DNA from: Candidatus Heimdallarchaeota archaeon
GTDB taxonomy: Archaea > Asgardarchaeota > Heimdallarchaeia > Heimdallarchaeales > Heimdallarchaeaceae
Length of the DNA stretch: 64,000 bases
Direction of reading: 5' to 3'
NCBI GenBank assembly: GCA_019057375.1
Contig: DXJF01000050.1
Coordinates: forward strand, 72,895 to 136,894
Shown here: one piece after another, positions 42,775 through 45,922 of the stretch
How the letters are laid out: each line of letters starts with the position of its first letter
How positions within the stretch are numbered: position 1 is the stretch's first letter
Program-made: the position numbers and the translations under genes
Notes under the pieces: model-generated
What the model was told of the DNA's origin: nothing
The model's input: only the letters and a program-made list of their open reading frames with translations
Databases searched by the model: none

Positions 42775-44070
42775 TCAATCACCGATAGTATGTATTGTTT
42801 CTATAGTTTGTTTTGAAAAATTAAACATCCTTGTTCTTAGGGTCAAAAACAAAACACCGATGAATATAACTATACTAGCTGACATCATTGTATTTGTTAT
42901 ACCTATAGCATCTGATGTTAATCCAGATAAAGATAAACAAGTAAAACTAAATATCTGGAGGTAGGCATTGGTTGCACTGTATGCCCTTCCTCTTACTTCA
43001 TTAGGTACTTCTTCTGCGAAATAAGCATTGATGCTCAAACCCATCATTCCATTTAAGGTACCCATTATTAACCCCAGAGCACCTATTACATAAATAGAAG
43101 TTGTAAATTGGAAGATAAAGTAGTATATTACTAGAGAAAAAGCACCCATAGTTATTGCTCTTGAACGACCAATTTTTTTCTCAAATTTACCAAATATTAG
43201 ATTTCCTGCTACAGTTCCAAATGCAATGATAGCTCCCACTATACCATATTCTGTTTGAGCAAGCTGTTCGAATAATTGATCCCCCCCATGGCGTATTTCG
43301 AATACCCAAGGGTAGAGTAAGGGACCTGCAAACGAAGCTCCAATTGTAGTAACTGTATATAATAAGATTAAAACCTTGATTATCTTGTGTTGGAATAAGT
43401 AAACAAATCCCTCTCGCATATCTTTGAAAATAGTTTTCACGGTCAAGCGTACTTTATCTCTTGAAGCTGAAGGTATCATTGTGAAGAATATAAATATTCC
43501 AGATACAATATAGCATCCACTTGTTATCCAAAAAGTAGGTGCTCCAAAGAATGCATAAACAGGTGCCGCAATTAATGGCCCCATCACAGCAAAGGTTTGA
43601 AAGATGAGTCGGCTAATACTAATTGCTTTAACATAAAGATTCTTACCTACAATCTCGGGTATAGCAGCCGAACGAGGAGCAGCAAAGCTTGATGAGCCCA
43701 CTCCATCTAGAAAAGCAATAATCAGTAATGGATACATAGTACTAATGAAGGGGATAGCTATGATCGAAACAGCTCTTAATAAATCTGAAGTAACCATAAT
43801 TGTTTTTCTGCTAATCCTATCTGCAAATACACCAGAAATGGGTCCTATTAATATCCAAGGTAGGGTTTGTGCTGCTAAAACTAAAGTCATCTTTGTTGCA
43901 GATCCAGTGATACTATAAACATAAAGAACAATAGAGATTCTAAAGACAGCGTCACCAATATTACTAAAAGTTTGACCTGCTAGTAACTTCACGAAATTTT
44001 TGTTTTTGAAAACATCTGAGAAAGAGGATTCCTCTTTCAATTCTAAATTAGCTTCACTCATCTTTTTCAC
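42775..44070 (-). CDS. MFS exporter (DHA3 / macrolide-efflux-like)
   Basis: GQTFSNIGD, GVFADRISRK, SDLLRA, EVPNEVRGRA. Confidence 0.9.
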   Translation of the reverse strand: MKKMSEANLELKEESSFSDVFKNKNFVKLLAGQTFSNIGDAVFRISIVLYVYSITGSATKMTLVLAAQTLPWILIGPISGVFADRISRKTIMVTSDLLRAVSIIAIPFISTMYPLLIIAFLDGVGSSSFAAPRSAAIPEIVGKNLYVKAISISRLIFQTFAVMGPLIAAPVYAFFGAPTFWITSGCYIVSGIFIFFTMIPSASRDKVRLTVKTIFKDMREGFVYLFQHKIIKVLILLYTVTTIGASFAGPLLYPWVFEIRHGGDQLFEQLAQTEYGIVGAIIAFGTVAGNLIFGKFEKKIGRSRAITMGAFSLVIYYFIFQFTTSIYVIGALGLIMGTLNGMMGLSINAYFAEEVPNEVRGRAYSATNAYLQIFSFTCLSLSGLTSDAIGITNTMMSASIVIFIGVLFLTLRTRMFNFSKQTIETIHTIGD

Positions 44071-44089
44071 TCACTTTTGAAAAAAAGAT

Positions 44090-44194
44090 TTAATGTAAGC
44101 TTCCTCTATGCAAAACATGTTTTTCTAAGGAAGCTAACTTTTTCTTACGCCATTCCATTTGAACTAAATCCTGTTTCTTTGCCTTTCTTACCAT
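44090..44194 (-). CDS. 34-aa basic micro-protein MVRKAKKQDLVQMEWRKKKLASLEKHVLHRGSLH (not in ORF track)
   Basis: ATG at 44194 preceded by GGTGATAAAA, the SD and spacing used by clear genes here; TAA at 44092-44090. Confidence 0.6.
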   Translation of the reverse strand: MVRKAKKQDLVQMEWRKKKLASLEKHVLHRGSLH

Positions 44195-44228
44195 TTTTAT
44201 CACCTTTCATTTTATGCCATATACCAGG

Positions 44229-44396
44229 TTAAATGTAAGATACATTATGCCCTACTGGATACCTAGAACGAGCTTTTACTCTTCTAGCGCGACGAGCTCT
44301 TTTGAGCTGATTCAACTCTAATTCGAGTGCCTTAATCCTTTCATCTAATGAGTTATCGATCATCAGATTTTCCATGTTAATGAGTTTAGAGGTCAT
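44229..44396 (-). CDS. 55-aa coiled-coil / Arg-rich micro-protein
   Basis: ATG at 44396 preceded by TGTGATAAAAAA; ERIKALELELNQLK heptad followed by RARRARRVKARSR. Confidence 0.6.
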   Translation of the reverse strand: MTSKLINMENLMIDNSLDERIKALELELNQLKRARRARRVKARSRYPVGHNVSYI

Positions 44397-44413
44397 TTTT
44401 TTATCACATACTT

Positions 44414-44555
44414 TCCTCAACAAGTTTTCTCAACTTGCTGAGAATTGTTCTCAAACACAGTATATGCGGTCTAGTATTTAAGGGTTTCTCAATACGTTGA
44501 GAAATGCTCTCGCTTTAGCAAGATTGTTGCCCATTCGAATGAGAATGTTTATATA
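44414..44555. promoter_or_regulatory. Divergent promoter with TTCTCAA-N4-TTGAGAA palindromes
   Basis: Perfect TTTCTCAA-TACG-TTGAGAAA at 44485-44504; one-mismatch copy at 44427-44444; half-sites at 44414, 44448 and 44540; TATA-like TTAAATA (minus, 44475-44481) and TTTATATA (plus, 44548-44555). Confidence 0.75.
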
Positions 44556-44589: not shown

Positions 44590-45225
44590 ATGAGTGACAG
44601 AACTTATAGTGATTTCGAGCAATTAGCTGTTAAAATTATTGTAGAAGATGAAGCTTTAAAGCTTTTAGTCAATCCAATATATCGTCCAATTTTACTTGTG
44701 CTGAGAGAAGGAATCAAAACAGCAGAAGAGATTGAGGAAGCACTACTAACGAAAAAAGAGTATCAAGTAGTTACTGTGAAAGCACCTAGTTTGAAGACAA
44801 TATATAGACACCTAAAAGCTTTGACTAGTGCAGGATTAGTTACTCAAGCTGGAACTAGAGGAACACAAAGACTCTTTGCTAGAACAGCTAAATTCTTTTA
44901 TCTTAAAGATAGTAAAAAGGAACATTTAGTACCTGAAAAAATAAAAACAAAAGCTAAATTGCTAAGCACGATACTGCAAATTGGACTTGATATTCCAAAA
45001 CCACCCTTGGATTGTTTAGGTAATTTAATAGAAAAAATATACAAATTTGAAGCTGATTGTGGTGAAGATCTTTTTACTGAACATGCTGAAGAAATAGCAG
45101 AGTTTCTAGGAGATGTTCCCCTAGAAGATTTACAAAGTATTCTAAACATGTACAGTACTATTAATTTCCTTTTGAGAAAAGATAAATTTACTAAGGATTT
45201 CAAAGATTGTTTAAAACTAACTTAA
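44590..45225 (+). CDS. Winged-helix (ArsR-like) transcriptional regulator
   Basis: NPIYRPILLVLR, TAEEI, TIYRHLKALTSAGLV. Confidence 0.85.
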   Translation: MSDRTYSDFEQLAVKIIVEDEALKLLVNPIYRPILLVLREGIKTAEEIEEALLTKKEYQVVTVKAPSLKTIYRHLKALTSAGLVTQAGTRGTQRLFARTAKFFYLKDSKKEHLVPEKIKTKAKLLSTILQIGLDIPKPPLDCLGNLIEKIYKFEADCGEDLFTEHAEEIAEFLGDVPLEDLQSILNMYSTINFLLRKDKFTKDFKDCLKLT

Positions 45226-45259: not shown

Positions 45260-45922
45260 CTACATATCTTCTTTATCTAACAATATAATTGCTGTAAGAT
45301 TCACCATCAAAGCTACTTTCTGAGTTACTATGTCTAAACCAATATTGATAATATGACATGTCTCCAATAAACAAGCTAACAAATGTATGGCAAAGGCAAG
45401 AAATACTAGCCAAACAAAGATAAAATCATTCCAGAAATCAAGACTTTGTCTATTTAATTCTGGTTTGTGTTTTCTCATATACCTTAAGATTTGACATACA
45501 AAGTTGAAAGCAGCAAAAGAAAGCATAAAGATAGCAGCACCTATACTATGAAATATTGCAAAAGAAGGATGGTCCCAAGGAAGCGATATTCCGATCCCTC
45601 CAACCATCATTATTAGAAGAAGAGCTCCTTTAACATAGTTATATCGTAATTTTCTCAGGATGAAGTAAGATATGGATAACCCTAGAGCAAATATACTAAC
45701 AAAAATAAAACCAATCATCATAATTAAAGAGGATTTAGTGTTATCCAAACCGGTATCACTTTCTATCCCGCCTAAATGGCTTATAGTTTCACTAAAGAAA
45801 TCATATTTCTCTGAATAGAGAGACCATGCTAAAGCTATTGTAATTACTATTAAGAACCCTAGAGACCAAATGATGAAACGAAGATTTCTCTGAATTCTCA
45901 TGATTCTATTCGAATCAATCAT
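45260..45922 (-). CDS. Polytopic membrane protein, DUF998-like
   Basis: ETISHLG near the N-terminus, five hydrophobic segments, FHSIGA. Confidence 0.6.
   Translation of the reverse strand: MIDSNRIMRIQRNLRFIIWSLGFLIVITIALAWSLYSEKYDFFSETISHLGGIESDTGLDNTKSSLIMMIGFIFVSIFALGLSISYFILRKLRYNYVKGALLLIMMVGGIGISLPWDHPSFAIFHSIGAAIFMLSFAAFNFVCQILRYMRKHKPELNRQSLDFWNDFIFVWLVFLAFAIHLLACLLETCHIINIGLDIVTQKVALMVNLTAIILLDKEDM

Follow-up and report, generated by a model that had tools for sequence, protein, structure and literature searches.

A 34-codon leader ORF with a conserved 3′ hairpin and oligo-U tract before an efflux gene of Heimdallarchaeaceae, a candidate for translation-coupled attenuation

Textbook examples from bacteria show transcription attenuated through leader peptides, for which ribosomes must stay close behind RNA polymerase (RNAP). 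Transcription and translation are coupled in archaea as well, where termination, however, relies on oligo-U tracts and a CPSF73-type nuclease. Can an archaeal operon nevertheless be governed by the translation of a short leader? The question is raised by a locus of a Candidatus Heimdallarchaeota archaeon (family Heimdallarchaeaceae; assembly GCA_019057375.1, 3.47 Mb in 159 contigs, 89% complete, 33% G+C), where two small cationic open reading frames (ORFs), here called A (55 codons) and B (34 codons), precede a gene for an efflux pump of the major facilitator superfamily (MFS). The stretch analysed, referred to as the window, comprises 64,000 nucleotides of contig DXJF01000050.1 (positions 72,895 to 136,894), and positions are given within it unless another contig is named. 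The unit around B looks like a bacterial-style leader-peptide switch, of which no described archaeal case was found in a literature search.

ORF B and the RNA structure at its 3′ end

The features of B and of the gene that follows it are listed below.

44093..44194, minus strand: ORF B, 34 aa (ATG at 44194, stop at 44090-44092), net charge about +7
44199..44204, minus strand: canonical Shine-Dalgarno (SD) sequence GGTGAT of B, 4 nt upstream of its ATG and conserved in all orthologues
44095..44138, minus strand: RNA hairpin AGCUUCCUU...AAGGAAGCU, within the last 15 codons of B and ending 2 nt before its stop
44080..44086, minus strand: T7 run, read as oligo-U in the transcript, 3 nt past the B stop, a candidate archaeal terminator or attenuator tract
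42775..44061, minus strand: DHA3-like MFS_3 exporter, 428 aa, likely start at ATG 44061 with AGTGAGTGA before it

The pump was searched in all 25 genomes of the genus, and the DNA upstream of the matches was inspected. An orthologous pump (at least 69% identity) accompanied by a divergent regulator was found in 13 species, among which is counted L042, where the contig starts at A and the regulator side lies off the contig. B stands immediately before the pump in all 13 of them, with an SD, a start codon and a length of 33-35 codons, while A is present in six, which make up a sub-clade with pumps of 76% identity or more to that of the window. Five species of the genus besides that of the window, all among these six, share the full order A-B-MFS plus divergent regulator, with lengths of exactly 55 and 34 aa, and both layouts (regulator-A-B-MFS and regulator-B-MFS) were met in metagenome contigs with the ORF lengths kept. 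The two ORFs that an earlier note on this DNA had read from the minus strand were borne out at their positions, and either A-B-MFS or B-MFS recurs in 12 other species and in metagenome contigs, beyond what chance would give. As to the conservation in relatives keeping the regulator-MFS pair, on which that note had staked its idea, B was retained throughout and A in only 6 of 13. No B-like leader ORF was found before the paralogous, more distant MFS genes of the same genomes, and none before pumps from other families of the order (45-62% identical), where the loci are fragmentary.

Genome-wide, GGTGA is about sixfold enriched upstream of starts (6.4% vs 1.0%) and its distance from the end of the motif to the ATG peaks at 4-6 nt; the context of B is thus canonical, and of the genome-typical ribosome-binding contexts claimed earlier for both ORFs, that of B (GGTGAT at 4 nt) was confirmed and A carries an SD-like GTGAT at 6 nt. 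Across the 13 species the frame of B is free of frameshifts and carries whole-codon indels only. The dN/dS (ratio of nonsynonymous to synonymous divergence; Nei-Gojobori) check that had been suggested yielded 0.14-0.71 for B and 0.14-0.52 for A between species, that is, coding constraint in both, with synonymous sites near saturation in the deeper species pairs. Within B, pN/pS (the corresponding ratio of proportions) is 0.43 for codons 2-18, which lie outside the hairpin, and 0.33 for codons 19-34. Residues K7, W15-R16-K17 and G31-S32 are nearly invariant, and a W-R-K-(K/E)-(K/R) motif sits directly 5′ of the hairpin stem in 10-11 of the 13 sequences; part of the amino-acid conservation (the ASL and GSL motifs) is explained by the arms of the hairpin. 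The B family comprises only 8 clusters at 50% identity among 1.84 billion proteins, all of 34-54 aa as called, and no match to B was found in Pfam or NCBIfam. Judged from these sequence comparisons, both A and B are real conserved coding genes. For B, the SD and ATG, the kept frame and length and the purifying selection argue that it is translated rather than merely structured, and since selection extends to its N-terminal half outside the hairpin, the sequence of the nascent peptide may itself matter, as in an arrest peptide.

The last 54 nt of each B were folded and compared with synonymous recodings in which codons were drawn from the pump genes. The minimum free energy (MFE) is −12.9 kcal/mol in the window and from −7.7 to −15.3 kcal/mol in 13 of 13 orthologues, compared with shuffle means of −4 to −7. 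Summed over the 13 species it amounts to −168 vs −69±8 kcal/mol, a value reached by 0 of 500 shuffles, and in any single species the observed stability is matched or exceeded by a fraction of 0-0.06 of the shuffles. When the 13 leaders were folded jointly with RNAalifold, one conserved stem emerged, with double-sided changes in four of its seven consensus pairs; at L043, L044, L045 and L046 the amino acids and bases of the arms differ and pairing is still kept. The hairpin is present in 15 of 15 loci (species plus metagenome variants) and persists when full leaders are folded. By these tests, selection acts on the hairpin as RNA. A comparison of the leader with Rfam gave nothing significant.

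The stem is followed by the stop codon and then by a run of five to eight T (T5-T8), which is present in 13 of the 15 loci despite saturated synonymous sites. Runs of at least seven T occur within 30 nt past the stop of 6.9% of the genes in the genome vs 0.1% of intragenic windows, consistent with oligo-T terminators at gene ends. Among 218 short same-strand spacers such a run in the first 14 nt is rare, at 1.4%, which makes the tract behind B unusual for where it stands.

Read-through to the pump and its control

On the minus strand, from 44503 to 42775, the locus reads operator 1, a TATA-like element, operator 2, A, B and the MFS gene, with 34 nt between A and B and 28 nt, starting ATC-T7, between B and the pump. 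The likely pump start, ATG 44061, aligns with SD-preceded starts of the orthologues, and the alternative GTG at 44070, 19 nt past the B stop, is less likely. The exporter was correctly recognized as DHA3-like by the earlier note, but the 19-nt gap that it gave should probably be lengthened to 28 nt. Such a spacer is too short for a promoter, given the distance from TATA to start, and expression of the pump would therefore depend on read-through.

The pump matches PF07690 (MFS_1; 1e-40, 140 bits, cutoff 33) and PF05977 (MFS_3; 4e-25, 88.6 bits, cutoff 27), and its dN/dS among orthologues is 0.04-0.11. Its best NCBIfam match is the DHA3 subfamily TIGR00900, full length at 214 bits vs a cutoff of 320, so that it is called DHA3-like, membership of the subfamily not being established; weaker matches were to Mef(A)/Mef(B) and EntS. 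MFS proteins of the DHA3/EntS type transport small molecules. Three orthologous loci deviate in the pump gene. In the closest relative (L040; G024:C5) a CTT is aligned with the pump ATG, and either another codon serves as start, GTG upstream or ATG downstream, or a base was wrongly called. L046 (G021:C112) has an internal TAA in the pump and the most diverged B, starting with TTG, and may be decaying. At L026 (G035:C205), from another family of the order, the pump contains two stops and lies beside a transposase-like ORF.

The geometry of a stem inside the ORF, then a stop codon, then a U tract suggests for B the role of a leader ORF to whose translation transcription of the pump is coupled, through read-through at a hairpin/oligo-U attenuator and on top of control by a repressor; this reading is tentative, its likelihood being put somewhat short of even. 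A single promoter would serve A (in one sub-clade), B and the pump as one repressor-controlled operon. The 3′ end of B would double as a cis-regulatory RNA, codons ~20-33 forming the hairpin, and the pump, which has an SD of its own, would have no promoter of its own. RNAP would terminate at the U tract either intrinsically, enhanced by the hairpin, or via aCPSF1/FttA. Published work is in keeping with this: one account describes termination of archaeal RNAP at an oligo-T of 5-6 residues, activity of bacterial-type hairpin/U terminators in archaeal systems, with enhancement by the hairpin, and action of aCPSF1/FttA on U-rich nascent RNA (PMC13675443). Termination at the locus would be avoided if a ribosome on B opened the hairpin or shielded the RNA, whether it follows close behind the polymerase, pauses at the W-R-K-(K/E)-(K/R) codons 5′ of the stem or pauses at the stop; in its absence, the stem and the U tract would be left free. 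Occlusion of the stem by the ribosome would need no alternative structure.

In a more specific form, B would be an archaeal arrest peptide, in which a ribosome pause at the hairpin, responding to a small molecule, suppresses termination and switches the pump on; the sensed molecule would plausibly be a pump substrate or a translation inhibitor. This form we consider unlikely. As for the proposal of the earlier note that both small ORFs are ligand-sensing leader peptides, leader-type control gained support for B, from the conserved 3′ hairpin and the oligo-U after the stop, and not for A; the carry-over of macrolide '+x+' stalling to archaeal ribosomes, on which it drew, is doubtful.

Several observations weigh against translation-coupled attenuation at B. 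The species compared are related, and their counts overstate independence. Codon-position bias in the N-terminal half of B is weak, codon positions 1, 2 and 3 having 12, 12 and 14 variable sites, respectively. L042 and L070/L071 have a mixed pyrimidine tract in place of a run of at least five T, and the distance from stem to U tract varies from 2 to ~11 nt, several species thus departing from canonical intrinsic terminator geometry. RNAalifold on the 13 leaders and single-sequence folds revealed no alternative antiterminator fold. Nor are hairpin-T terminators general here: a simple bacterial terminator scan of 38-50 kb found 0 vs 5.2 expected in shuffles, missing the B hairpin itself because the loop is too long for the scan rule. 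Finally, the literature search yielded no archaeal example of ribosome-dependent attenuation, and we know of no demonstration of it in archaea. A different role of the tract, sequestration of the pump SD by the pyrimidines, to be relieved by translation of the upstream ORF, was also considered and rejected, as the pairing probability of the SD in 15 loci is not above a shuffled-spacer null.

The remaining elements of the locus belong to control of the promoter.

44486..44503, both strands: operator 1, a perfect TTCTCA-N6-TGAGAA palindrome directly before the TATA-like element of the minus strand; an equivalent site occurs at orthologous loci
44475..44481, minus strand: TATA-like TTAAATA, presumed to serve the A-B-MFS transcript, between the two operators
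44427..44453, both strands: operator 2, TGAGAA-N3-TTCTCA-N6-TGAGAA, covering the site where transcription is expected to start
44590..45225, plus strand: divergent winged helix-turn-helix (wHTH) regulator, 211 aa, PH1932/ArsR-like, the presumed repressor acting at the operators

TTCTCA-N6-TGAGAA has exactly two copies in the 3.47-Mb genome (44486-44503 and 44427-44444), both at the pump locus, and a search of the genome for an operator regulon found no site beyond these. The operator pair, including the extra inverted half-site, is kept at every orthologous locus whose promoter was recovered, and TTTATAT or TTTAAAT occupies the same place between the operators. The regulator is syntenic wherever the upstream flank of the locus was recovered, at 32-64% identity. 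It matches PDB 1ULY (PH1932) over residues 14-197 (E 2e-4), and HTH_20, FUR and HTH_5 in Pfam, every one under its cutoff. The divergent wHTH gene and palindromic operators of the earlier note therefore stood. The likeness to PH1932-type archaeal wHTH proteins extends to a match spanning nearly the whole protein, a wHTH followed by a C-terminal domain, the divergent gene arrangement and palindromic operators over the promoter; the difference is that similarity is low, with no Pfam wHTH match reaching its cutoff. The repressor, bound at two operators that bracket the TATA-like element, would give on/off control, on which translation of B would be laid as a further layer.

A TATA-like GTTTATATAG lies at 44546-44555 on the plus strand, ~35 nt upstream of the regulator ATG with a TTCTCA half-site adjoining, a placement consistent with an autoregulated gene whose leader is very short. 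The neighbours of the pump locus are the wHTH gene, a DUF998-like membrane protein and a 291-aa ORF without family assignment. The second of these, at 45260-45922 on the minus strand, is a multi-pass membrane protein of 220 aa that matches DUF998 weakly and lies tail-to-tail with the regulator.

ORF A and its relatives in the genus

The coordinates of A are as follows.

44232..44396, minus strand: ORF A, 55-aa cationic small protein (ATG at 44396, stop at 44229-44231), net charge about +6
44403..44407, minus strand: SD-like GTGAT of A, 6 nt upstream of its ATG

The protein carries heptad Leu/Ile followed by RARRARRVKARSR, and the conserved core of its family reads L-D-x-x-I-K-A-L-x-x-E-L-x-Q-L-K-R-A-R-R-A-R-R-A-K-A-R-S. 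The length of 55 aa is exact in five other species and two metagenome contigs, and in the orthologues GTGA or GGTGA is found 4-5 nt upstream of the ATG. AlphaFold2 on the family alignment predicted a single helix of residues 2-45 and a disordered tail, with a predicted local distance difference test (pLDDT) score of 85, exceeding 90 across the first 40 residues. With a family profile, matches came from 20 of the 24 further species in the genus, mostly at 2-4 copies per genome, and from 0 of 58 genomes of the class that belong to other genera, families and orders. Among 5.8 billion proteins searched there were 68 relatives, all short hypothetical proteins of Heimdallarchaeota or Heimdallarchaeaceae without a Pfam domain. 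Comparison of A with Pfam and PDB profiles gave chance-level coiled-coil matches only, NCBIfam gave none and the ESM Atlas no usable match. One JGI record labels a relative of A as 'DUF1192 family', and assignment to DUF1192 (PF06698) was rejected, its score being below the gathering score (E 0.086, 13.4 bits vs a cutoff of 25.5). A is thus, as far as these searches indicate, an independent, coding, genus-restricted small protein.

Seven of the 13 species lack A and yet retain the regulator, operators, B, hairpin and pump, so a cis-encoded A is dispensable to the working of the unit. In two of the six species with A, a second A-like ORF is found farther upstream in the leader. The paralogues of A in the same genome, two on contig C54 and a more distant one on C145, are none of them beside a transporter. 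This distribution makes it probable that A entered the pump leader of one sub-clade as a copy from a genus-specific small-gene cluster; A would then be a recruited accessory small protein, and it may bind nucleic acid.

The two copies on C54 belong to a tandemly duplicated, lineage-specific cluster of small genes (G000 contig C54, ~27.4-32.2 kb; L069:5487-10176, also L002 and L003), whose order is a coiled coil of 62-67 aa, the A-like gene, an ORF of 85-87 aa termed B-long, membrane proteins and Cys proteins of 120-158 aa. On C54 the A-like gene encodes 48 aa, B-long 86 aa and the coiled coil 62 aa; the cluster further holds a 138-aa signal-anchored acidic-repeat protein, tail-anchored proteins of 49-50 aa, one with a weak Synaptobrevin match (E 0.023), and four paralogues of 120-158 aa that share an RxCLKCG motif. 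This cluster, kept across the genus, showed no significant Pfam family. A provirus was considered as its origin and dropped, because the flanks are ordinary chromosomal genes as judged from ORF translations. The relative on C145 (97689-97808; L004:1247-1605, minus strand) is a distant A-like gene of 42 aa, followed by a strongly acidic, helical 50-aa ORF, and most species of the genus have about one gene of this type per genome. A second small ORF seems to accompany every A-like gene. B was also considered as a truncated copy of B-long. Aligned with hhalign, B and the C terminus of B-long gave a weak signal (P 0.001-0.003, probability 11-19%), end-to-end and with the same R...GS spacing; B-long was not retrieved by the B profile from 1.84 billion proteins, and the 3′ ends of B-long showed neither a hairpin nor a T run.

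Alternative readings and known systems

Much of the conservation of B would also be accounted for if B, with or without A, were a microprotein acting in trans, on the cytoplasmic side of the pump or on the regulator, and the hairpin and U tract formed a leaky, non-sensing terminator or a stabilizer of the 3′ end. Purifying selection does run over the whole length of the peptide, up to the nearly invariant residues named above, and an internal partial terminator would fix the ratio of B to pump with B in excess. Small proteins acting on transporters are documented in archaea: in Methanosarcina mazei, MttS/MttQ form a membrane-spanning complex with the transporter MttP (bioRxiv 10.64898/2025.12.02.691841), and sP36 acts with AmtB1/GlnK1 (PMC10714827). 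B, however, has no hydrophobic segment of the kind found in membrane subunits such as MttS/MttQ, part of its conservation is due to the hairpin arms, and nothing links it to a binding surface; a complex prediction for B with the MFS protein scored under the mark and is counted as evidence neither way. A microprotein acting in trans is therefore possible, if on the improbable side, and it and the leader-ORF reading are not mutually exclusive, as the same facts fit both. The opposite view, that B is untranslated and its frame open by chance within a structured 5′-untranslated RNA element (riboswitch-like or a protein-binding hairpin), draws on the strong RNA-level selection of the hairpin and on the weak codon-position bias of the N-terminal half. 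It is very improbable: a canonical SD stands at optimal spacing from the start codon in 13 of 13 loci, a frame of 33-35 codons is open at all loci of an AT-rich genome with whole-codon indels only, pN/pS is below 0.5, and neither an Rfam match nor conserved structure beyond one hairpin was found in the leaders.

For A, alone or with B, a nucleic-acid-binding co-regulator, also proposed by the earlier note, could be envisaged, a coiled-coil dimer whose Arg-rich helix sits on the operators or on the hairpin RNA. The predicted helix of 44 residues, with its heptad Leu/Ile and basic stretch, would suit this, as would the genus-wide family with multiple members per genome, a further small ORF coming after each of them, and the doubled A-like genes in the leaders of two species. 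But the rest of the unit persists in the species without A, and A matches no known DNA- or RNA-binding family, its Pfam and PDB matches being chance-level coiled coils, so that this role is distinctly unlikely. Least probable of all, and close to negligible, is the suggestion of the earlier note that A, B or both are exported cationic antimicrobial or signal peptides with the MFS protein as their dedicated exporter. It could appeal to the adjacency of the genes in a shared operon, the strongly cationic nature of both peptides and the Pfam title of PF05977, 'transmembrane secretion effector'. It found no support in the sequences of A and B, which contain no signal peptide, double-glycine leader, Cys pair, or amphipathic or hydrophobic segment. 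Neither maturation (processing) nor immunity genes lie nearby, the pump is of the small-molecule MFS type, the paralogues of A are far from exporters and A itself is often missing, and the hairpin and U tract have no place in an export model.

If B were an arrest peptide, Archaea would have their first described case of ribosome-dependent transcription attenuation, as far as the literature search shows, and it would come from an Asgard lineage whose eukaryote-like transcription is still coupled to translation. The locus offers a concrete, clonable test case for translational control of termination in archaea, in the lineage closest to eukaryotes; its merits are the conservation in 13 species and the tight placing of the stop codon, with a selected hairpin before it, a U tract after it and a promoter-less efflux pump farther on. 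It also adds genes of 34 and 55 codons, a size often skipped by gene callers, that are under selection in Heimdallarchaeia, and A defines a genus-restricted family of predicted helical, Arg-rich microproteins.

Among bacterial systems, the mef(E)/mel leader, bmrB-bmrCD of Bacillus subtilis and the erm and cat leaders are reportedly ribosome-dependent attenuators of efflux or resistance operons. As in these efflux and resistance leaders, a short SD-led ORF precedes a drug-type pump, DHA3-like here and of the family of the Mef pumps, and a hairpin and U tract lie between the leader ORF and a promoter-less pump. Unlike them, B is hosted by an archaeon with a Pol II-like RNAP and with termination by oligo-U and aCPSF1/FttA; no antiterminator stem was found, and the terminator stem is itself part of the ORF, whose stop codon separates it from the U tract. 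The leader is also long, at 34 codons, with a conserved peptide, and macrolide-type stalling is not expected on archaeal ribosomes.

TnaC of tnaCAB (PMC8450073) and SpeFL of speFL-speF-potE are metabolite-sensing arrest peptides that block factor-dependent termination. With these, B shares scattered conserved leader residues including a Trp, a stop codon adjoining the termination region and a transporter operon; the RNA would be protected by a ribosome halted where the leader ends, FttA/aCPSF1 taking in archaea the part of Rho. SpeFL is said to be 34 aa long, like B. They differ in having no sequence similarity with B and in belonging to another domain of life, stalling in B being only supposed, and the conserved RNA hairpin of B is absent from the TnaC and SpeFL systems. 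From the small proteins of Methanosarcina mazei, A and B differ in that MttS/MttQ are membrane-spanning, whereas A and B are fully hydrophilic, cationic and non-homologous to them, and the cis-acting RNA features of the B locus are not reported for MttS/MttQ or sP36. What is shared with both is the arrangement of small ORFs beside, or in an operon with, an archaeal transporter gene, and layouts of this kind thus exist in archaea.

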